Shown here in pieces: positions 30,379 to 63,303 of a stretch of 64,000 nucleotides of DNA; the stretch's first letter is position 1, and each line of letters begins with the position of its first letter. The notes under the pieces are model-generated. The model was not told where the DNA came from. It saw only the letters and a list, made by a program, of their open reading frames with translations, and did no database searches. The stretch is from NCBI GenBank assembly GCA_018509705.1, contig GCA_018509705.1_3630.1; one strand, 5' to 3'. The position numbers and the translations under genes are program-made. Source of the DNA: a phage.

Positions 30379-31467
30379 TTAGATAAAACGCTTGAACATA
30401 GAAGGTGATGAGATTGATGGAATCACACAAGGAAGTGCTACCTCCTCTTTCTCCAGGAAATTAATCGCAGAAGCTACGCAGTCGGCCCAGTCGTCTTTTC
30501 TGTTAAATGTTGATCTTTCCCCGTTGAATTTTTCAAGTTCAGTCAGAAATGCTTCCAGAGTATCAGGATGGAAACTGGATTTTACAATCCTCACCATTCC
30601 TTGTTGGGCAAGATTGGCAAAAGGTGAGAACCTTGTCAGTTTAGACTTGTTGGAAGGCATTGGGTCTTCTTCAACCCTGAACCCTTCGGCAAGCAAGGAT
30701 CTGGAGGAGGTTAAGAACTCACTCTTACCTGCCTGCCCTGGGTCCACAGAGAAGACGATTATGCAATCATCACCATCGAACTGCGCCTGTTTCCTGATGA
30801 TCACATCTCGTTCACCAGCCTTTTTACAGAACTTGCCTTCCAGACCTGTGGAATACCTCCCGTCATCCACGTTCTCAGGACAATAATCACCGGACAGGTA
30901 ATAAAAGCCGTCGCTATCTTTACTTACCTTAATACTGGCAGTAAAGTCAGGAAATTTATTACCGGAAGTTCTCTCGGTTCCTGCCTTATCCCATGCCCTG
31001 CAAGATACTGACCCAAGAGGTACTCTATCGGCATCACGAAGGAAAGATCTTTGAAAATAGTTTGCACCCTCAGGCTTTGCAAACCAGTTACCATGGAGAA
31101 GCTGAGCTTTTTCCAGCTCTGGTAGACCTTCGAGGAAAGCAAGGTATTCTGGGTTGTCTCTCAAACAGACAGGATTATCGAATATTGTTGCGCCTATGAA
31201 CGAGAATGACAACGGTCTTGGCTTGATCTCTACGCCAAGTCCGTTAACCGTGGTGTATTTCTCTATCAACTCTTCTTTAGAGTCTCCCCAGATAAATTCA
31301 CCGTCGCGTCGGATAAAATATCTTTTCTTACCGCATTTCTCCGGATCTGGATACCCTTCATCGTCCAACCACCATCTAACCAGTTTGGCAAGCATGTGTT
31401 CTGAATCGGGGTTACAGCTGATAACCATTCTTGATGGATACTTTGACGGAGATCGCAGACGAGACAT
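30379..31467 (-). CDS. terminase large subunit, C-terminal segment (putative exon 2; true 5' boundary unknown)
   Basis: 362-aa ORF that continues the ATPase/nuclease protein begun in 32381-32809; the track start is probably not the real exon boundary. Confidence 0.55.
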   Translation of the reverse strand: MSRLRSPSKYPSRMVISCNPDSEHMLAKLVRWWLDDEGYPDPEKCGKKRYFIRRDGEFIWGDSKEELIEKYTTVNGLGVEIKPRPLSFSFIGATIFDNPVCLRDNPEYLAFLEGLPELEKAQLLHGNWFAKPEGANYFQRSFLRDADRVPLGSVSCRAWDKAGTERTSGNKFPDFTASIKVSKDSDGFYYLSGDYCPENVDDGRYSTGLEGKFCKKAGERDVIIRKQAQFDGDDCIIVFSVDPGQAGKSEFLTSSRSLLAEGFRVEEDPMPSNKSKLTRFSPFANLAQQGMVRIVKSSFHPDTLEAFLTELEKFNGERSTFNRKDDWADCVASAINFLEKEEVALPCVIPSISSPSMFKRFI

Positions 31468-32380
31468 CAGATAGTCTATCTGCTCCCATTCGAACTGTGT
31501 CGTTTATGTTCGGGCAAGGTCGCTAGTCTTGCCCCGCCATTTTCAGGCAGCTGCATGTCTCCATGCAGACCAGACTATATCTTATGAATGTGCAAATACT
31601 CTGCCGCTCTAAGAATAGTTTCCTCATCCTCTTGGAAGAAACCTAAAGCTCTGTTGCATTTATCACAAAGCAACCCTCTTACAGCACCAGTTTTATGGTC
31701 ATGATCAACACAAAAGAAATCTCTGTACCCTTGCGTCCTATACTCATCAAGAGATATTCTACAAATGGCACACTTATGATCTTGATCTGAGAGTAGACGA
31801 TAGTATTCATCTTTTGTTATGTGAAATTTCTTCTCAATCTGATAAAACTTTTCACACATCTTACACCTGTTCGTAACCAGATATACTTTACCATAGTCAC
31901 GTTTTGTGTAAAAACTATCAGCGAGCATACTTTCATGACAAGATTTGCATTCAAAAAGTTCACCTTTCTTCAGCAAGTCTTGAATAAATAATGCTGCGTC
32001 ATCTCTCTTAACCATATTTTTGTTTCTACGAGATCCACCCTTCCTGTAGTACATATAGCATTCCTTGCATGTACCTGAGTATCCATCCTTGCTCTTAGAT
32101 GATAAAAAGAAATCATCAATAGGTAGAACTCTTTGGCAATCCATACATTTTTTAGTATTACACATTCACCCTCCCGTTTCGAATCGCTTGATTCTACGTC
32201 TTTCGACTAGTCGTTGAACGTTCATCCTCTCGGATGCTTCGCTGCGGATTATCTAAATTAACACACTGTTACCATACCTTCGATCTCTCTTCGAAGCCTC
32301 TATCATGTTACCATGACAGGTTGGTGGTGTCAATAATAAAGATTTCCCCGCAATTAGGGAGGTTTTACGAGAGCTACAAA
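31468..32380 (-). mobile_element. intervening sequence in the terminase large subunit gene (putative self-splicing intron) carrying an HNH endonuclease ORF
   Basis: Lies between the in-frame stop of the ATPase segment and the C-terminal segment; contains the 31575-32165 ORF; flanks are GC-richer and stem-forming; intron class not determined. Confidence 0.45.
31575..32165 (-). CDS. HNH / endonuclease VII-like homing endonuclease
   Basis: Cys-rich N-terminus and FFCVDHDHKTGAVRGLLCDKCN motif, as in T4 gp49-type HNH nucleases. Confidence 0.65.
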   Translation of the reverse strand: MCNTKKCMDCQRVLPIDDFFLSSKSKDGYSGTCKECYMYYRKGGSRRNKNMVKRDDAALFIQDLLKKGELFECKSCHESMLADSFYTKRDYGKVYLVTNRCKMCEKFYQIEKKFHITKDEYYRLLSDQDHKCAICRISLDEYRTQGYRDFFCVDHDHKTGAVRGLLCDKCNRALGFFQEDEETILRAAEYLHIHKI

Positions 32381-32809
32381 TTAACCCTCATCGAAGCAAA
32401 CCATGGTGTACTCAAGCCCTTGATGGTTAAGCTTATCTTGTACATACTCCATGTGACAGTATTTTACAACAGCTCCCTTTTTGCTTCTATCCCACTTGCC
32501 AGTGTTCGGATCAAACCGTGGAAAAATGAACTTATGATCCTTCTCTCTGAACTTTGGCTTAATGTTTTCAGGCAGATCACTGTAAATAGCTACTGCTTTA
32601 GGCCATAGTCCACCCTCACCTTCCAACTGTGGGGTTGTTCTTCGGAACATAACCACAGAGCTGTGGGGGTCATCAATAATTTTAAGTGGCATCAACTGCA
32701 AGAGGAACGACTTGCCAGACCCTGCGGCACCGCCGATTACCAAAATATCTGCATCGTTTTCTAGGATCATCTTCTGCTTTTCAGAACACGGTCCGTAAAT
32801 CTTAGACAT
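32381..32809 (-). CDS. terminase large subunit, N-terminal ATPase segment (putative exon 1)
   Basis: Walker A ILVIGGAAGSGKSFLL and Walker B-like MVCFDEG immediately before the stop. Confidence 0.7.
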   Translation of the reverse strand: MSKIYGPCSEKQKMILENDADILVIGGAAGSGKSFLLQLMPLKIIDDPHSSVVMFRRTTPQLEGEGGLWPKAVAIYSDLPENIKPKFREKDHKFIFPRFDPNTGKWDRSKKGAVVKYCHMEYVQDKLNHQGLEYTMVCFDEG

Positions 32810-33912: not shown

Positions 33913-33989
33913 TGGTCTCCACGGAGTGATTCGAACACTCGACCTCCTGATCCCAAATCAGGCGCTCTACCAAGCTGAGCTACGCGGAG
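33913..33989 (-). tRNA. tRNA-Pro (anticodon UGG)
   Basis: Hand-folded cloverleaf: acceptor CTCCGCG, D-loop TAGCTCAG, anticodon loop TTTGGGA, T-loop GGTTCGAATC, encoded CCA. Confidence 0.8.
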
Positions 33990-34000
33990 TATTTATTATT

Positions 34001-34075
34001 TGGTGGCCCTGGGTGGAATTGAACCACCGTCTGGCGATTATGAGTCGCTTGCTTGAACCTTCCAGCTACAGGGCC
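34001..34075 (-). tRNA. tRNA with CAU anticodon (Met, or Ile2 lysidine-type)
   Basis: Acceptor GGCCCTG/CAGGGCC, anticodon arm GCGA-CTCATAA-TCGC, T-loop TTCAATT, encoded CCA. Confidence 0.75.
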
Positions 34076-34076
34076 A

Positions 34077-34152
34077 TGGTGCTGATGGCAGGACTTGAAC
34101 CTGCAACCTATTGATTACAAATCAATTGCACTACCAATTGTGCTACATCAGC
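34077..34152 (-). tRNA. tRNA-Thr (anticodon UGU)
   Basis: Acceptor GCTGATG/CATCAGC, D-stem GCAC/GTGC, anticodon arm ATTGA-TTTGTAA-TCAAT, T-arm GCAGG-TTCAAGT-CCTGC, CCA. Confidence 0.8.
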
Positions 34153-34157
34153 AAAAA

Positions 34158-34256
34158 GGTGCTAGGTGATGGAATCGAACCACCTATGTATTCAACGACT
34201 ACCTCGTCTATTTTCAGGATTAAAAATCCTCGCCCTTGCCAAAGGGCTTACCTAGC
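34158..34256 (-). tRNA. atypical tRNA-like gene (about 99 nt; isotype unresolved)
   Basis: Good acceptor (GCTAGGT/ACCTAGC) and T-arm (GGTGG-TTCGATT-CCATC), but about 24 extra nt between D and T arms; anticodon arm ambiguous (AGGAT-TTTTA-ATCCT or 4-bp stem with UUU). Confidence 0.3.
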
Positions 34257-34354
34257 TCAGTATGTTGACCATGTTGCTAGTCGGCGATGACGACTGTAAC
34301 ATTTGATAATCCGGTTCTGCTTCCGGCTTTCGCTTAATTACAAGGTCAACAATA

Positions 34355-34445
34355 TGGCTGAGGGTAATGGAATCGAACCATCATCAAGTCATCCTCAACG
34401 GGACGGTTTTCAAGACCGCTTGAGCACCATTGCTCCCTACCCTCA
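34355..34445 (-). tRNA. tRNA-Ser (anticodon UGA), long variable arm
   Basis: Acceptor TGAGGGT/ACCCTCA, anticodon arm GCGGT-CTTGAAA-ACCGT, long variable arm, T-loop TTCGATT, CCA. Confidence 0.7.
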
Positions 34446-34559
34446 TTTATAAACAATACTGATAATGACACTGATTTTCGAGCAGTTAGTGACTAGTATA
34501 AACGACGATAAATATCAATGCCATTATCTGTATGATTTATGCATTTAAAACTATAAATT

Positions 34560-34646
34560 TGGTGGGGAGTGGTGGAGTCGAACCACCCGAGTCGCAATGA
34601 CAATAGATTTACAGTCTACACCGCTACCCCTACGGGATAACTCCCC
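34560..34646 (-). tRNA. tRNA-Tyr (anticodon GUA), long variable arm
   Basis: Acceptor GGGGAGT/ACTCCCC, anticodon arm GTAGA-CTGTAAA-TCTAT, T-arm GGTGG-TTCGACT-CCACC, CCA. Confidence 0.7.
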
Positions 34647-34650
34647 AATT

Positions 34651-34725
34651 TGGCACCCCGTACTGGACTCGAACCAGTGTCAACGGCTTAGAAGGCCGCT
34701 GCTTTATCCACTAAGCTAACAGGGC
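34651..34725 (-). tRNA. tRNA-Arg (anticodon UCU)
   Basis: Acceptor GCCCTGT (two G-U pairs), D-stem GCTT/AAGC, anticodon arm GCGGC-CTTCTAA-GCCGT, T-arm ACTGG-TTCGAGT-CCAGT, CCA. Confidence 0.75.
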
Positions 34726-57986: not shown

Positions 57987-58265
57987 ATGAGCTGTGAAAA
58001 ATCTTTTTTCTTTATTATTTACGGTAAAGATAACTGCCCACATTGTGTCAGAGCAAAAGAATTTGCAATCAGCAAAGGTCTGCCTTTTGTATATAAGACA
58101 CTTGGCGAGGGATACACAAAAGAAGAGCTTATTGAGAAGTGTAGCCCAATCGTGCCCAGAACGTTGCCGCAGATCTTCTTAGAAAGCAATCTTGAAAGTG
58201 TCCATATAGGCGGTGCCGACGATTTCATCTCTTTTGTTAAGAATGGTTTTGGAGAGAAAAAGTGA
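57987..58265 (+). CDS. glutaredoxin/thioredoxin-like redoxin (NrdC/NrdH-like)
   Basis: CPHC active site in FIIYGKDNCPHCVRAKEF; located between nrdB and nrdD. Confidence 0.65.
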   Translation: MSCEKSFFFIIYGKDNCPHCVRAKEFAISKGLPFVYKTLGEGYTKEELIEKCSPIVPRTLPQIFLESNLESVHIGGADDFISFVKNGFGEKK

Positions 58266-59125
58266 AAGTTGTAAAACGGGACGGTAGAGAAGAGTTCTAT
58301 AACGGAATTAAGGTGATCAAGGCGGCAGAGTCCGCCTTACTTGAGTCTGGACATACTGAAGAAGAAGCTTACCGGATCGCCTGCGCGGTTAATGAAGTTG
58401 TTGCTAACAATCTACCAACCGACCAGTGCACGATCTCTGTAAAAAATATCCATATCCTTGTTGAAGACGCTCTTATGGATATGGGTTTAAAATGTGCAGC
58501 CAGAGAATACATCCAGTATAGGCAGACAAGAGATAATAACAGAGAGGCAGGTGGAAAACTGCTTGCAGATATTAGTGGCTTCTTGGATCGCACTTGTGAT
58601 GAATTTACAAAAGAAAACGCAAATAAGCCTACCAATCATGTACACACTCATCGTGACCTGCTTGCAGGCATTCTTAGCAAACACCTTGCATCAACACAGA
58701 TCCTGCCAGACCGTGTCTCTGAAGAGCACAATAAAGGCTTCATCCATGTGCATGATCTTGACTACTTGATCAGTCCGTTAACAAACTGTTGTTTGGTAAA
58801 TTATCCAGATATGCTGGAAAACGGATTCAACATTGGTAACGCTCATGTCAGTAAGCCGAAGTCAATAGGGGTTGCAACAACAATCCTTAGCCAAATCTCT
58901 AGTGCGGTAGCTAGTGCTCAATATGGTGGTCAGACTATGAGCCATATTGATCATTATCTGGCACAGTATGCTGAAGCAACCTATGAGAAGAACCTTAAAT
59001 TTTGCCAGGAACATTGGTTGCCAGATGCTGAGACTGTTGCAATGCAAATGACAGATAAAGACGTATTTGACAGCATGCAGACTTTGCTCTATCAAATCAA
59101 TACGTTAACTTCTGTCAACGGTTAA
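58262..59125 (+). CDS. nrdD: anaerobic ribonucleotide reductase, N-terminal segment (putative exon 1)
   Basis: ATP-cone-like KVVKRDGREEFYNGIKV; ORF ends at a stop entering a structured non-coding stretch; true 3' boundary unknown. Confidence 0.7.
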   Translation: MKVVKRDGREEFYNGIKVIKAAESALLESGHTEEEAYRIACAVNEVVANNLPTDQCTISVKNIHILVEDALMDMGLKCAAREYIQYRQTRDNNREAGGKLLADISGFLDRTCDEFTKENANKPTNHVHTHRDLLAGILSKHLASTQILPDRVSEEHNKGFIHVHDLDYLISPLTNCCLVNYPDMLENGFNIGNAHVSKPKSIGVATTILSQISSAVASAQYGGQTMSHIDHYLAQYAEATYEKNLKFCQEHWLPDAETVAMQMTDKDVFDSMQTLLYQINTLTSVNG

Positions 59126-59433
59126 CAAACTGGCCGTTTTAAAACTCTGCTAACCTCAGTATGAGGGGTCAGCTGATCGCTGGCTAACGGGGAACGCTAA
59201 GGCGAAAGCTATGCCAATCCCGTGACTAGCTTCACAAGGAGTGAGGCGGTTGTAACGACTAACCTTTTGGTGTAGGGATTATGGAAGATTCCGAAACGCA
59301 GAGGTCTGATTAAGAATCACACGGTGTGATTTCAGGCAAGAGATAGTCTGGCCTTGTGGAAACATAAGGGTGGGGACCGCAAACCCCTTTTATCACATTA
59401 AGTTTAGGTCTGGACACCTCAGTATTTGGTAGA
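59126..59433 (+). mobile_element. intervening sequence 1 in nrdD (putative self-splicing intron, no ORF)
   Basis: About 300 nt without an ORF, locally GC-richer with many complementary segments, between two nrdD-like segments. Confidence 0.45.
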
Positions 59434-59688
59434 ATGATTACCAAAAACTACTTGAAAGTCCACAAAATGGGTCTTGGTGAAGAACGTATCACACCTGTGT
59501 TCCCTAAAGTGCTGTTCTTCCTAGAAGAGGGTGTCAACATGAACCCTGGAGATCCTAACTATGATTTGAAACGATTAGCTTTGGAATGCTCTGCAGAGCG
59601 GATTTATCCTGACTTTGTTTCTGTTCCACTAAATCGTAAAGTGACAGGATCGACAGATGGCAAAGTAACGAGCATGGGTAAACTATAA
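59434..59688 (+). CDS. nrdD: anaerobic ribonucleotide reductase, middle segment (putative exon 2; boundaries approximate)
   Basis: 84-aa ORF between the two intervening sequences; assignment by context. Confidence 0.45.
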   Translation: MITKNYLKVHKMGLGEERITPVFPKVLFFLEEGVNMNPGDPNYDLKRLALECSAERIYPDFVSVPLNRKVTGSTDGKVTSMGKL

Positions 59689-60411
59689 CTGCTCATGTAA
59701 AATCTATCTAAACGGGGAAACTCCAGAACGGACAATCCCGTGCTAAACGTAACAGAACTCCTGACCAAGAGGAGTCCTGAAATGAGAAAACAAATTCGTG
59801 ATTTTGAAGGTTATGAAATTGACGAGATGGGCAATGTTTATTGCACCCGCTACGAAAATGAAAGAATTATTCATTCGTGGGAAGAGATAAACACAGGTTA
59901 CCGTCTTGTTAGGATACGCAAGAACAAAAAGACTGTTTGCCTAAGGGTTCACAGACTTGTTGCTGAATCGTTCTTACCAAATCCAGACAATTTACCCTAT
60001 GTTAAGCACAAAGGGGACAACAGGAAAGATAACAGTGTATACAACCTTGAGTGGGGAGCTTGCCCAGACAATACGCAAGAAGGATACAACAACAACTGTT
60101 ATGCTTTTTACACAAAATGCCACGGTGTGAAAGCCACCAACAAATTAACTGGTGAGGTTTTCCACTTTAAAAGTCTGAGATGTTGTGCTGATGTTTTAGG
60201 AGTGGATAGAAAAAGAATATCTGCTATCCTGAAACGTGGTGCGCCTAATAACTATGATTACGAGTTCTGTTACGAAATGCCTAACGACTAACCGTGATGA
60301 ATGTAGCGGTGTAGGGTGTAAGCCGATGACACTCGAAATGGTAGACACACTAAGTGTGAAGATATAGTCTGATCTGCATGGGAACATGCAGCAGCACGTA
60401 AAGGTGCGGGG
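59689..60411 (+). mobile_element. intervening sequence 2 in nrdD (putative intron) carrying an HNH endonuclease ORF
   Basis: Contains ORF 59740-60291 plus a structured 3' tail; the nrdD frame resumes downstream. Confidence 0.45.
59740..60291 (+). CDS. intron-encoded HNH homing endonuclease
   Basis: HNH_3-like core CLRVHRLVAESFLPNP...NLEWGAC. Confidence 0.55.
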   Translation: MLNVTELLTKRSPEMRKQIRDFEGYEIDEMGNVYCTRYENERIIHSWEEINTGYRLVRIRKNKKTVCLRVHRLVAESFLPNPDNLPYVKHKGDNRKDNSVYNLEWGACPDNTQEGYNNNCYAFYTKCHGVKATNKLTGEVFHFKSLRCCADVLGVDRKRISAILKRGAPNNYDYEFCYEMPND

Positions 60412-61404
60412 GTGGACTTGCGAACCACCCTGAACATAATGTGTAGAAGTTTCTTATCGAAATATAGCGACCCTGTAACAGGCGAGGAGAAATACCTTGG
60501 CAGATTTAACTTAGGCGTTGTTAGCCTTAACCTGCCAATGATTGCGGCAAAAGCTAAAACGGAAGGTGTTGATTTCTTTGCAGTTCTTGACGAATACCTG
60601 GATCTTGCATACGAGGCTCACCTTGTAAGGGTTAACCGTCTAAAAGGAACAAAGGCAGGGCAGAACCCTATCATGTGGTGTGAAGGCGCTCTTGCTCGCC
60701 TGGATCCTGAAGAGAGTATTGATAAACTCTTCTATGACGGGTACGCTTCCATCAGTATTGGGTATATTGGTGTGTATGAAACCTGTCAGATTTTGGGCAG
60801 GGAGGGTGACAAGGCTTTAGCTCTTGGAATACTACAGCACATGAGAGATGCTTGTGAGCGATACAAGAAGGAAAGTAGACTAGCGTTTAGCTTGTACGGC
60901 ACTCCTTCTGAGAGTCTATGCTATAAAGCTGCAACCTGTCTGGATCGTGAATATCCTGAAGTGTTGAAGCACGAGCATGAATATCTCACCAACAGTTTCC
61001 ATCAGCCAGTATGGATCAATAGCTCTCCTTTTGATAAGTGGGAGTATGAAGAAGGTTTTGCTATGATATCCTCTGGTGGCAACATCGGATACGTAGAGAC
61101 ACCAAATCTGAAAAACAACTTAGATGCTTTGGAAGCTCTTGTTGATTTCGGATATAAACACATTATGTATTTTGGTATCAACCAGCCTGTGGATAAATGT
61201 CTTAAGTGTGGTTTCTCTGGTGAGTTCAGTGCAACAGCTAAAGGGTTCTGCTGCCCTGCGTGCGGATGCCACGATGAACAATATATCTCAGTGATCCGAA
61301 GAGTGTCTGGATACCTTTCCAGTCCTAACTCCCGTCCTTACAATAAAGGTAAGCAAGCGGAAGTTATAGAACGGGTTAAGCACTACGGAAGTTGTGGTTG
61401 CTGA
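60412..61404 (+). CDS. nrdD: anaerobic ribonucleotide reductase, C-terminal segment (putative exon 3; track start is not the true boundary)
   Basis: CRSFL and GRFNLGVVSLNLPMIA, C-terminal Cys cluster CLKCG...CPACGC and glycyl-radical-like RRVSGYLS. Confidence 0.7.
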   Translation: MDLRTTLNIMCRSFLSKYSDPVTGEEKYLGRFNLGVVSLNLPMIAAKAKTEGVDFFAVLDEYLDLAYEAHLVRVNRLKGTKAGQNPIMWCEGALARLDPEESIDKLFYDGYASISIGYIGVYETCQILGREGDKALALGILQHMRDACERYKKESRLAFSLYGTPSESLCYKAATCLDREYPEVLKHEHEYLTNSFHQPVWINSSPFDKWEYEEGFAMISSGGNIGYVETPNLKNNLDALEALVDFGYKHIMYFGINQPVDKCLKCGFSGEFSATAKGFCCPACGCHDEQYISVIRRVSGYLSSPNSRPYNKGKQAEVIERVKHYGSCGC

Positions 61405-61470
61405 TACTTGACAAAAGCCACAAGGATGTGGCACCCTTAGTTCAAAGACGAGAACTAAGAGGATTCAGCA

Positions 61471-62631
61471 GTGAGAAAACTTACAACCGAAGATTTTATA
61501 GAGGGGGCGAAAGCAGTTCATGGTGATAAATATGATTATTCCAAAGTCAAATATGTGGGTGCACACACCAAGATTGTAATTATATGCCCTGAGCATGGAG
61601 AATTTAAGAAAACTCTTGGAGATCACCTCCGTAAAAAACAGGGTTGCCCAAAATGTCAGATTGAAGCAGAAAGAGCGGCTTCTGCTGAAAAATTTAAAGC
61701 GGAGGCCGAGGCTAAGTATAATTATAAATATGATTACTCTAAGGTAGAGTATGTAAATGCTAAAACTAAAGTTGTGATTGTTTGTCCTGTTCACGGCGAG
61801 TTTGAGCAAAAGCCTGATAACCATCTCCGCGAGGGGGGTTGCCGTAAGTGTGGAGGAACTGAGAGAAAGACTACTGAAGAGTGGATCGCTGAGGCAAAAG
61901 CGCTTCATGGCGATAAGTATGATTACTCTCTTGTAAATTATAAAACCGGTAATGATAAAGTGGAGATAATCTGTAATACATGTGGTGCTCACTTCCCACA
62001 AAGACCTCATGACCATGCACCAAGTGGAAAAGGTTGCCCCGAGTGCGGGAAGAAGAAGGTGGCCGAGGTTAGTAGGAAGACGCAGAGAAAGAAAGCATCT
62101 GAGGTAGCTAAAAGGTTTGAGGCAAGAGCCAGAGCTATCCATAAAGATAAATACGATTATTCCAGGGTGGAATATGTTAATAGGGAGACAGAGGTCACTA
62201 TCATCTGTCCGATTCACGGGGAGTTCACACAAAAACCGTTTGTCCACATCAACCAAAAAGCTGGCTGTCAAAAATGTGCTAAAGTCGGCTTCTTATCTCA
62301 TGAACATGGTAGCCTTTATATCATGGTTGACGATCTGGAAGTACCAACTATGATGAAAATTGGTGTGAGTGTCCGGGTAGATGAACGAAGAAAAGATGTG
62401 TTAAAAAGAGCTAAAAAAGCTGGTGCTAGATTCTCTGATCTACATGTTATAAAAACTTGGGAAGGAACAACAGACGACATGCAAACTTTAGAAAAAGCTA
62501 TGCACCAAGCCTTGAGCCAATACAAAATCAACTTCACAGAGAAGTTTGATGGCTGTCGAGAGTTCTTCTACTACAGACCGGAGGTGTTCAGCATAGTGGA
62601 AGCAGCGTATAAAGAGATCTGCGGTAAATGA
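61471..62631 (+). CDS. repeat protein: four tandem Cys/His zinc-ribbon-like repeats plus C-terminal GIY-YIG-like (T5orf172-type) domain; putative free-standing homing endonuclease
   Basis: Four repeats of about 45 aa (GDKYDYS.V.Y...V.I.CP.HGEF...P..H...GC.KC), visible at DNA level; C-terminal SLYIMVDD...MMKIGVS...RRKDVLKR. Confidence 0.4.
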   Translation: MRKLTTEDFIEGAKAVHGDKYDYSKVKYVGAHTKIVIICPEHGEFKKTLGDHLRKKQGCPKCQIEAERAASAEKFKAEAEAKYNYKYDYSKVEYVNAKTKVVIVCPVHGEFEQKPDNHLREGGCRKCGGTERKTTEEWIAEAKALHGDKYDYSLVNYKTGNDKVEIICNTCGAHFPQRPHDHAPSGKGCPECGKKKVAEVSRKTQRKKASEVAKRFEARARAIHKDKYDYSRVEYVNRETEVTIICPIHGEFTQKPFVHINQKAGCQKCAKVGFLSHEHGSLYIMVDDLEVPTMMKIGVSVRVDERRKDVLKRAKKAGARFSDLHVIKTWEGTTDDMQTLEKAMHQALSQYKINFTEKFDGCREFFYYRPEVFSIVEAAYKEICGK

Positions 62632-62683
62632 TCGTAGAAAGATACACACATCTTAAACATGCTATAAACTAAGGAGGTACAGT

Positions 62684-62800
62684 ATGTCTAAAGGTATTTC
62701 TAAAATTTGCAAGTGTGGTTGTCGTTGCAATCTTCGTTGGTGCAAGGCACTAGATGATTTTATTTGGCATTGCCCTAAATGTGATACGGAGTATCTATGA
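62684..62800 (+). CDS. small Cys-rich zinc-ribbon protein (38 aa)
   Basis: MSKGISKICKCGCRCNLRWCKALDDFIWHCPKCDTEYL; AAGGAGG RBS; ATGA overlap with nrdG. Confidence 0.3.
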   Translation: MSKGISKICKCGCRCNLRWCKALDDFIWHCPKCDTEYL

Positions 62801-63270
62801 ACATTGTCGGATACACAGAAATATCTTACACAGAAGGGCCAGGTATTAGAACTGCCTTGTGGGTATCTGGGTGCCCACACGCTTGCCCTGGTTGCTTTAA
62901 TCAGGCATTTTGGTCAAAAGATAAGGGGAGGGAGTTCACTGAAGAAGATTTGCAAAAAATCTTGTCAGATTTAGATAACCCGTCTGTGTGCGGTATCTCT
63001 CTGCTGGGTGGAGAACCCTTAGCATACTATAATGAGCCAGATATTATTAGCCTGATGGAGAAAATTAAGGAAAAATTTGGTGACAAGAAAACTATTCTTG
63101 TATATACTGGGTTCACATTTAACCATATCTCTAGTGATGTTCTTAAACTGGCTGATATCATCATTGACGGTAAGTATGTAAAAGATTTACCAACCAAGAA
63201 ACCGTTCCGAGGCAGTGATAATCAAAGAATGTTTAAAAAAGTATCAGGCGGTTGGGTTCAGGTAGACTAG
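62797..63270 (+). CDS. nrdG: anaerobic ribonucleotide reductase activating protein (radical SAM)
   Basis: GCPHACPGCFN radical-SAM Cys motif near the N-terminus; 157 aa. Confidence 0.8.
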   Translation: MNIVGYTEISYTEGPGIRTALWVSGCPHACPGCFNQAFWSKDKGREFTEEDLQKILSDLDNPSVCGISLLGGEPLAYYNEPDIISLMEKIKEKFGDKKTILVYTGFTFNHISSDVLKLADIIIDGKYVKDLPTKKPFRGSDNQRMFKKVSGGWVQVD

Positions 63271-63273
63271 TTG

Positions 63274-63303
63274 TTGACAAAGCTTTGTTTAGATAGGTAT
63301 AAT
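63274..63303 (+). promoter_or_regulatory. sigma70-like promoter (TTGACA-18-TATAAT)
   Basis: gTTGACAaagctttgtttagataggTATAATtatcg immediately after nrdG. Confidence 0.55.

Follow-up and report, generated by a model that had tools for sequence, protein, structure and literature searches.

The nrdD gene described here lies on a 64,000-nucleotide stretch of phage DNA (contig GCA_018509705.1_3630.1 of the NCBI GenBank assembly GCA_018509705.1), the whole of which we refer to as 'the window'. The gene occurs in three pieces. In our reading, to which we give a probability of about nine in ten, it is interrupted by two group I introns of the IA2 type, one of them carrying an HNH endonuclease, and is spliced to yield a single NrdD protein of 707 amino acids. 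The pieces are colinear with an uninterrupted allele of the gene, close relatives lack the insertions to the nucleotide, and both insertions contain the helices of a group I ribozyme, which in the second case is homologous to the sunY intron of phage T4. The best matches of the surrounding region (58000–63300) are to Vequintavirus (rV5-like) coliphages, by megablast against deposited phage genomes (305 records). At 92–97% identity overall, the window isolate is distinct from the deposited Vequintavirus alleles. Locally, nrdD follows nrdA, nrdB and glutaredoxin and precedes an endonuclease open reading frame (ORF) and nrdG.

Exons and the restored protein

ORF pieces with NrdD-like sequence occupy positions 58262–59125, 59434–59688 and 60412–61404. 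As the intron-less reference we used the nrdD gene of O157 typing phage 14 (locus L003), which is uninterrupted and encodes 707 amino acids. By BLAST, positions 58000–59121 of the window correspond to L003 301–1422, and positions 59379–59679 to L003 1423–1723; L003 is thus contiguous across the first gap. At the second gap, window positions 59679 and 60450 correspond to L003 1723 and 1733, and L003 1723/1724 is again contiguous. Reading of the junctions, together with the group I rules that the exon ends in U and the intron in G, sets the exact splice sites at 59122/59380 and 59679/60442 (Table 1). The intron-less junction of typing phage 14 at the second site reads ATGGGT/TGCCGGAGTTTTCTTAGC; the window's own exon junction there reads TGTAGAAGTTTCTTATCG. 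Genomes about 97% identical to one another differ by the exact presence or absence of each insertion. Chance is excluded both by this precision and by the Rfam family Intron_gpI, which matches both gaps.

Joined, the three exons form a coding sequence of 2124 nucleotides whose 707-amino acid product is colinear with NrdD of typing phage 14. This product matches the Pfam families NRDD (533.6 bits), Gly_radical (86.3 bits) and ATP-cone (48.5 bits). It has the features of a class III NrdD: the NRDD domain, a catalytic cysteine in the finger loop, a C-terminal glycyl-radical motif and an ATP-cone. Cys388 and Gly677 align with Cys290 and Gly580 of T4 NrdD, which are the thiyl-radical cysteine and the glycyl-radical site, respectively, of that enzyme. 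Intron 2 falls between Gly387 and Cys388, directly before the catalytic cysteine. Intron 1 falls at SVNG/QTPF, ten codons downstream of where the T4 intron is inserted. In-frame stop codons occur 0 and 2 codons past the two 5' splice sites, as they do in the T4 introns.

A preliminary description of the window, made from the sequence, had listed the three NrdD-like pieces, and they are present exactly at the coordinates that it gave. Its view that they are colinear with intact NrdD is borne out by the alignment to typing phage 14, and this includes the short middle piece. The limits it assigned to them are correct as the limits of ORFs, but they are not the ends of exons: exon 2 begins 54 nucleotides upstream of the ATG, and exon 3 begins 30 nucleotides downstream of the GTG, from which those pieces were counted. 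It called the gaps 'intron-like', and their anatomy, their homology and their exact absence from the intron-less allele identify them as group I introns. The first gap, said to be ORF-less and rich in structure, is both: it contains no ORF of 40 amino acids or more on the plus strand, and it folds with a minimum free energy of -94.7 kcal/mol (z = -4.07), a stability reached by 0 of 200 shuffled sequences. The ORF in the second gap, said to be of the HNH_3 type, does encode an HNH protein (PHROG 59, resembling I-HmuI), but its match to Pfam HNH_3 lies below the curated cut-off. For annotation, then, nrdD is best entered as one joined coding sequence of 707 amino acids with two introns and one intron-encoded endonuclease, and not as three 'NrdD fragments'.

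Table 1. Features of the nrdD locus, in window coordinates
Feature	Position	Strand	Description
nrdD exon 1	58262–59122	+	Residues 1–287; ATP-cone and N-terminal part of NrdD (Pfam ATP-cone, NRDD); 98.3% identity to L003
Exon 1 end	...AAC GGU	+	U59122 is the 5' splice-site U
Intron 1	59123–59379	+	257-nucleotide ORF-less group I intron; UAA directly past the splice site; ends at G59379; absent from typing phage 14
Intron 1 guide	59133–59138	+	GCCGUU, pairs with exon AACGGU (59117–59122) to form P1; from sequence, Rfam alignment and minimum free energy fold
Intron 1 P3, 5' strand	59145–59150	+	CUCUGC, partner GCAGAG (59298–59303); minimum free energy fold
Intron 1, two hairpins	59154–59185	+	CCUCA-GUA-UGAGG and GGUCAGC-UGAUC-GCUGGCU, between P3 5' strand and P4; minimum free energy fold
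Intron 1 P7, 5' strand	59257–59261	+	GACUA, partner UAGUC (59344–59348); guanosine-binding helix
nrdD exon 2	59380–59679	+	Residues 288–387, QTPFITL...KVTSMG; 96% identity to L003 1423–1723
Exon 2 end	...AUG GGU	+	U59679 is the splice-site U
Intron 2	59680–60441	+	762-nucleotide group I intron, T4 nrdD/sunY lineage; ends at G60441; absent from RudolfGeigy, SophiaRose and typing phage 14
Intron 2 guide	59691–59697	+	GCUCAUG, pairs with exon CAUGGGU (59673–59679) to form P1; same guide as T4 sunY
Hairpin at base of P6 loop	59748–59784	+	Encloses AGGAG (within 59770–59775) and AUG 59782–59784; -12.4 kcal/mol, z = -3.91
HNH endonuclease ORF	59782–60291	+	169 amino acids, I-HmuI-like, in P6 loop; PHROG 59 'HNH endonuclease', E = 2.8e-32
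Intron 2 P7, 5' strand	60286–60290	+	GACUA, overlapped by the end of the ORF
Intron 2 P7, 3' strand	60365–60369	+	UAGUC, after J8/7 GAAGAUA; followed by P9, P9.1 and P9.2 up to G60441
nrdD exon 3	60442–61404	+	Residues 388–707; CRSFL (catalytic Cys), Cys4 cluster, RRVSGY (Gly677)
Exon 3 substitution tract	60442–60476	+	14–15 differences in 35 nucleotides from every relative compared that lacks intron 2 (typing phage 14, RudolfGeigy, SophiaRose)
Free-standing endonuclease gene	61471–62631	+	386 amino acids, between nrdD and nrdG; PHROG 681, E = 3.7e-80

Architecture of the two ribozymes

Covariance-model searches of the gaps, run in E-value mode, found matches to Intron_gpI (RF00028) in both. 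In intron 1 the match covers the full length of the model (59113–59369, 29.2 bits, E = 4.9e-5); in intron 2 it covers the 3' half only (60286–60391, 35.3 bits, E = 7.1e-7). These values are from local searches, and both matches remain significant when the whole window is searched (E = 1.7e-3 for intron 1, 2.5e-5 for intron 2). Both introns begin with a P1 helix that has a U.G wobble at the 5' splice site, and both end in the terminal guanosine (omega-G), G59379 and G60441, at boundaries fixed by the intron-less allele. In both, the P7 helix is GACUA/UAGUC, identical to P7 of T4 sunY. Both also possess helices P7.1 and P7.2 between the 5' strand of P7 and the 3' strand of P3, the arrangement by which they are assigned to IA2, the subgroup typical of T-even phages. 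These helices are ACC-UUUU-GGU and GGGAUU/GAUUCC in intron 1, and ACCG/CGGU and GGGUGU/ACACUC in intron 2.

For intron 1, the minimum free energy fold yields P1, P3, P4–P5, P6a, P7.1, P7.2, P8 and P9; P7, and the J8/7 segment AAGAGA that precedes its 3' strand, were read from the sequence. Another 29 Vequintavirus records have a variant intron in this position. The copy in phage JEP1 (L008 1424–2220) is 797 nucleotides long, carries a 177-amino acid HNH ORF in P8, and is 86–87% identical to intron 1 over its first 141 nucleotides. Between the two forms, compensatory changes are found in P3, P6a, P7.2, P9 and both of the hairpins that lie between P3 and P4. The JEP1 form of P3 is CUCUCC/GGAGAG (a G-C pair becoming C-G), and its two hairpins are kept with other sequences, CCUC-AUAA-GAGG and GGUCGG-UAAAU-CCGGCU. 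A different P3, the mismatched pairing CGCUG.GC/CG.CAGAG in the Rfam alignment, was rejected in favor of CUCUGC/GCAGAG, which the JEP1 variant supports; the 5' strand of the Rfam version is part of a hairpin. In JEP1, the Shine–Dalgarno sequence of the HNH ORF, GGAGAGG, is the 3' strand of P3, and the stop codon overlaps J8/7. The P8 hairpin of intron 1 shows weak similarity to the 5' end of that ORF (19/25, E = 0.08). Intron 1 may be a deletion derivative of the JEP1-type variant, although the similarity is too weak to claim this. When IMG/VR was scanned for distant relatives of intron 1 with a degenerate P4–P5 pattern, only one contig matched, from another phage of about 137 kb.

For intron 2, covariation was assessed in an alignment of five phage cores from which the ORFs had been stripped. 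RNAalifold alone recovers P1, P3, P4, P5, P6, P7.1, P7.2, P8, P9, P9.1 and P9.2 from this alignment, and 27 of the 66 pairs that it predicts show double compensatory changes. Replacement of a spurious 4-pair hairpin by the invariant P7 pseudoknot (5 pairs) gives a structure of 67 pairs, in which 95.8% of cells are paired and 27/67 pairs covary. Neither value was reached by any of 500 shuffles (0/500), and slid controls gave 36–44% paired cells and 0–6 covarying pairs. A helix-by-helix check found 316 of 317 pairs intact, a figure that is biased by the hand choice of the helices. The helix placement offered by Rfam, in which P7.1 appears as 'P1' and P7.2 as 'P8', was rejected, and the correct helices were taken from the homology to T4 sunY.

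That homology was detected by BLAST as a distant match between the 3' core of intron 2 and the T4 nrdD region, and all helices, P1 and P3–P9.2, are conserved with covariation. P1–P6 and P6'–P9 are about 77–80% identical in the two introns, the guide GCUCAUG, P7 and J8/7 are identical, and the 3' termini (UGAACAnAnUG) are homologous. The host gene, nrdD, is also the same. The two differ in position and in passenger. The T4 intron is inserted in codon Tyr180 (AYEY/EV, phase 1), whereas intron 2 lies at Gly387/Cys388 (residues 289/290 in T4 numbering, phase 0). The T4 endonuclease is the GIY-YIG enzyme I-TevII, encoded between P9.1 and P9.2, whereas that of intron 2 is an HNH protein resembling I-HmuI, encoded in the P6 loop.

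Proposed homing and splicing, and the alternatives

The HNH ORF of intron 2 stands in place of the P6a hairpin of T4, and at its end the coding sequence, UAA stop included, passes through J6/7 into the 5' strand of P7. A longer version of the ORF, starting at GTG 59740 (59740–60291), was rejected: ATG 59782 is preceded by an AGGAG Shine–Dalgarno sequence and matches the N-termini of the orthologues. The hairpin that encloses this start has equivalents, with compensatory changes, in phages SD2 (z = -4.33) and F96 (z = -3.06). A similar sequestration of translation signals is known for the intron endonucleases of T4 (PMC2988022), and the hairpin may likewise control translation of the HNH endonuclease. 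Aligned with I-HmuI of Bacillus phage SPO1 (PDB 1U3E; residues 3–166 versus 4–172, E = 1.1e-7), the protein matches from end to end. Common to the two are a GYEV..G.VY sheet at the N-terminus, an HNH core in which His and Asn are conserved and, at the C-terminus, a helix-turn-helix (NUMOD-like; 20.0 bits for Pfam I-HmuI_NUMOD-like, cut-off 27), and each is encoded within a phage group I intron. The motif VKHKGDNRKDN..NLEW..DN aligns with VDHKDGNKDNN..NLRW..IN of I-HmuI, and the catalytic His and Asn residues are kept. The host gene of I-HmuI is that of DNA polymerase, and not nrdD; I-HmuI is a nicking enzyme, whereas the activity of the present protein, like its cleavage site, is a prediction. 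Intact orthologous ORFs occur in introns at the same site in SD2, JH2, F96 and JEP1, and the endonuclease is conserved across four phage groups.

Exon 3 opens with a tract that goes with the intron. The tract differs strongly from relatives that lack intron 2 (Table 1), and shows 0 differences from JEP1, which carries it; past the tract, identity returns to about 97%. The first 17 nucleotides of this exon flank are identical, or nearly so, to the flanks in SD2 and JH2. A shorter tract, with 3 synonymous changes in 12 nucleotides, adjoins intron 1. We interpret the exon 3 tract either as the probable product of co-conversion during endonuclease-driven homing or as a target site altered against cutting.

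The mechanism that we propose is as follows. The nrdD gene would be transcribed as a single pre-mRNA containing two IA2-type ribozymes with P7.1 and P7.2. Each would fold and bind guanosine in P7. Cleavage would follow the exon U that wobbles with the guide, U59122 for intron 1 and U59679 for intron 2, and ligation of the exons past the terminal G59379 and G60441 would produce the mRNA for the 707-amino acid class III ribonucleotide reductase. The HNH endonuclease would nick or cut the intron-less nrdD genes of co-infecting phages near MG/CRSFL, and recombinational repair would copy intron 2 together with about 35 nucleotides of the downstream exon. Intron 1, the ORF-less form, would spread only passively or by means of an endonuclease acting in trans. 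The same intron alleles are carried by many viable isolated phages, and splicing of both introns in vivo is what their sequences lead us to expect. Guanosine-dependent self-splicing would likewise be expected by analogy with the homologous T4 sunY intron, for which self-splicing is established (PMC2988022).

Several observations weigh against this reading. The Rfam scores of both introns, 29.2 and 35.3 bits, are below the 50-bit gathering threshold, at which Rfam reports no intron in the region, but tRNAs only. The 32-nucleotide insertion of two hairpins between P3 and P4 of intron 1 is atypical for a group I peripheral element, and we know of no standard one in that position. In the endonuclease, the Asp that precedes the catalytic His of I-HmuI is replaced by Lys across this HNH lineage, and the score against Pfam HNH_3 is 19.1 bits versus a cut-off of 24.8. 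Finally, we found no demonstrated splicing of either nrdD intron in the literature. Control scores put the first of these points in perspective: T4 sunY scores 105.3 bits in Rfam, and the introns of JH2 and JEP1 that have an ORF in P6 score 33–36 bits. Intron 2 falls below the threshold because its ORF splits the core, and other homologues with an ORF in P6 score just as low. The shortfall reflects interruption by ORFs and peripheral differences; the core is not absent.

The insertions might instead remain unspliced, with NrdD translated as two or three separate polypeptides from which an active enzyme is assembled. A precedent for this exists in a phage ribonucleotide reductase gene, nrdA of Aeromonas phage Aeh1, which is interrupted by the gene for an HNH endonuclease, mobE (PMC7344957, PMC3653736). 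Each of the three ORF pieces does have a possible start (GTG 58262, ATG 59434 and GTG 60412), but those of the second and third lie away from the limits of homology. Piece 2 would lack 18 conserved residues (QTPFITLSLGLDTSVFGR); piece 3 would start within intron RNA and would part the catalytic Cys388 from the loop that precedes it. There would be no reason, moreover, for complete, covarying group I cores to have been conserved. Aeh1 has no ribozyme, does not splice, and makes its protein in two pieces (PMC7344957, PMC3653736), whereas here complete group I cores flank the ORF. We regard separate polypeptides as very unlikely, and decay of the gene as improbable to the same degree. In the latter case nrdD would have been inactivated by decaying mobile DNA, the introns would no longer splice, and the gene would be dispensable. 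NrdD and NrdG are indeed missing in some relatives within the subfamily (PMC7344957), so they may be dispensable in the laboratory, and intron 1 is without the endonuclease ORF of the JEP1-type variant. But the exons are intact, 96–98% identical to uninterrupted nrdD, and all catalytic motifs are present. Pairing in the ribozyme helices of this copy is complete, many isolates carry intron copies that are 99% identical, and the HNH ORF is intact.

Mechanisms other than RNA splicing could in principle carry expression across the gaps, namely inteins or ribosomal bypassing of the gene 60 kind, both of which are known in phage nucleotide-metabolism genes. Here we give them almost no weight. In-frame stops lie within 0–2 codons of the starts of the insertions, the insertions are out of frame with the exons, and a Pfam search found no Hint or intein domain. 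At 257 and 762 nucleotides the insertions far exceed the 50-nucleotide bypass gap, and they contain group I cores.

Possible site switching, distribution and neighboring elements

The kinship between intron 2 and T4 sunY raises the possibility that a single lineage moved between nrdD codons under an unchanged guide, its descendants then capturing endonucleases independently. We consider the evidence for this proposal evenly balanced. In the spliced nrdD of T4, two hexamers can pair with the sunY guide ([AG]UG[AG]GU), and these are the T4 site and the MG/C site only; in the nrdD of the window, four hexamers can do so. Felixouna-, Justusliebig- and Vibrio phages, like the phage of the window, have an intron at the MG/C site. 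The data fit a route by reverse splicing, and equally one by illegitimate homing filtered by splicing competence, and do not separate the two. A 2014 review notes that direct experimental support for transposition by reverse splicing is lacking and that introns in rDNA supply the best circumstantial evidence (PMC3984707). If the proposal is correct, the nrdD introns would provide an example, in a protein gene and in phages, of guide-constrained intron transposition. The same ribozyme and guide at two nrdD codons, with different endonuclease passengers, form a natural pair for the study of site change. In other respects the locus is a routine case of homing elements that target the most conserved codons of phage nucleotide-metabolism genes.

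Introns at the MG/C site are found in Felixounavirus (JH2, UAB_Phi87), in Justusliebigvirus/Phapecoctavirus (SD2 and others) and in Vibrio phage F96. They have the same insertion site as intron 2; their ribozymes are homologous to that of intron 2, and their P6 loops carry orthologous HNH ORFs. They differ in being 73–84% identical to intron 2 and in belonging to phages without intron 1. F96 has, in addition, a further HNH-bearing insertion at QYG/GQT. Its nrdD (L007 1–3669) is annotated in at least four pieces, with a 309-amino acid HNH protein at QYG/GQT and the second insertion at MG/C, and this load is heavier than that of the window. Among deposited Vequintavirus genomes and their relatives, the two introns occur both together and apart. 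Intron 1 is at least 99% identical in 14 phage records. Both introns are found contiguously, at 97.9–99.3% identity, in four records (navn, 241Ecol014PP and two labelled Campylobacter phage), and the ORF-bearing variant at site 1 accompanies intron 2 in three (C2, phita32 and JEP1). Ten records have ORF-less intron 1 alone. RudolfGeigy (a phage of the BASEL collection) and SophiaRose have the first insertion only. At least 11 Vequintavirus records have intron 2 alone, as do, at about 82% identity, at least 11 Phapecoctavirus/Justusliebigvirus records. The full combination in the window, both introns and the T5orf172 endonuclease downstream, is in no single record among the matches listed. About 25 GenBank records (MG0656xx) labelled 'Campylobacter phage', with C. 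jejuni as host, are 95–99% identical to this coliphage locus, which suggests that they are mislabelled or contaminating coliphages.

The preliminary description had regarded two introns in one nrdD gene as a notably dense load. This was an overstatement. The identical two-intron allele is present in at least four deposited genomes and variants of it in dozens, and published reductase genes carry as many introns or more: two in nrdE of Staphylococcus phage Twort, and three, plus an intein, in nrdE of Brochothrix phage A9 (PMC3653736). Twort nrdE resembles nrdD of the window in having two group I introns near conserved functional residues, one with an HNH endonuclease, I-TwoI (PMC3653736). It differs in being a class Ib gene of a Gram-positive phage whose splicing has been shown by experiment, where ours is predicted; we draw the likeness from the published description. 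In short, this is a phage mobile-intron locus of an ordinary kind, which public genomes already contain and in part annotate. The nrdD coding sequence of RudolfGeigy was annotated as a join by its BASEL depositors, whose paper describes the annotation of intron boundaries by comparison (PMC8594841), and JEP1 is annotated 'HNH homing endonuclease, Phage intron'. The split nrdD of Felixounavirus has been reported as a gene interrupted by a homing endonuclease, and not as one with a sunY-type intron (PMC4837284). The rV5 genome paper reports introns in terL only (PMC3606486), and a survey of split phage ribonucleotide reductase genes includes several nrdD cases along with the multi-intron nrdE genes (PMC3653736). 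In full-text literature searches we found no paper on Vequintavirus nrdD introns or on their kinship to sunY.

The gene at 61471–62631 is a separate mobile element at the nrdD locus. Its product is T5orf172/GIY-YIG-like at the C-terminus and contains four DUF723/treble-clef zinc repeats (Pfam T5orf172, 27.1 bits; MUG113, 29.3 bits; DUF723, 53.1 bits), and a PDB sequence search with all 386 amino acids gave no meaningful match. The gene is present in typing phage 14 and SophiaRose, and not in RudolfGeigy; JEP1 has another ORF, of 311 amino acids, in its place. In T4, the equivalent interval between nrdD and nrdG holds mobC. Within 4.4 kb, the nrdD locus holds three independent mobile elements. 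The window has a fourth in another region, the terL intron.

This last is a third group I intron (31551–32393, minus strand; Rfam 47.3 bits, E = 6.5e-9), which splits the gene for the large terminase into exon ORFs at 32381–32809 and 30379–31467. It contains an ORF (31575–32165) for a Cys-rich protein of 196 amino acids, the copy of which in a relative is annotated as endonuclease VII-like. The window also has a cluster of seven tRNA genes at 33913–34725 (Pro, Met, Thr, Ser, Tyr, Arg and one odd). The odd gene (34158–34256, minus strand) is 99 nucleotides long, scores 35.5 bits against the Rfam tRNA model, and is assigned a 4-base anticodon (atcc) by ARAGORN.

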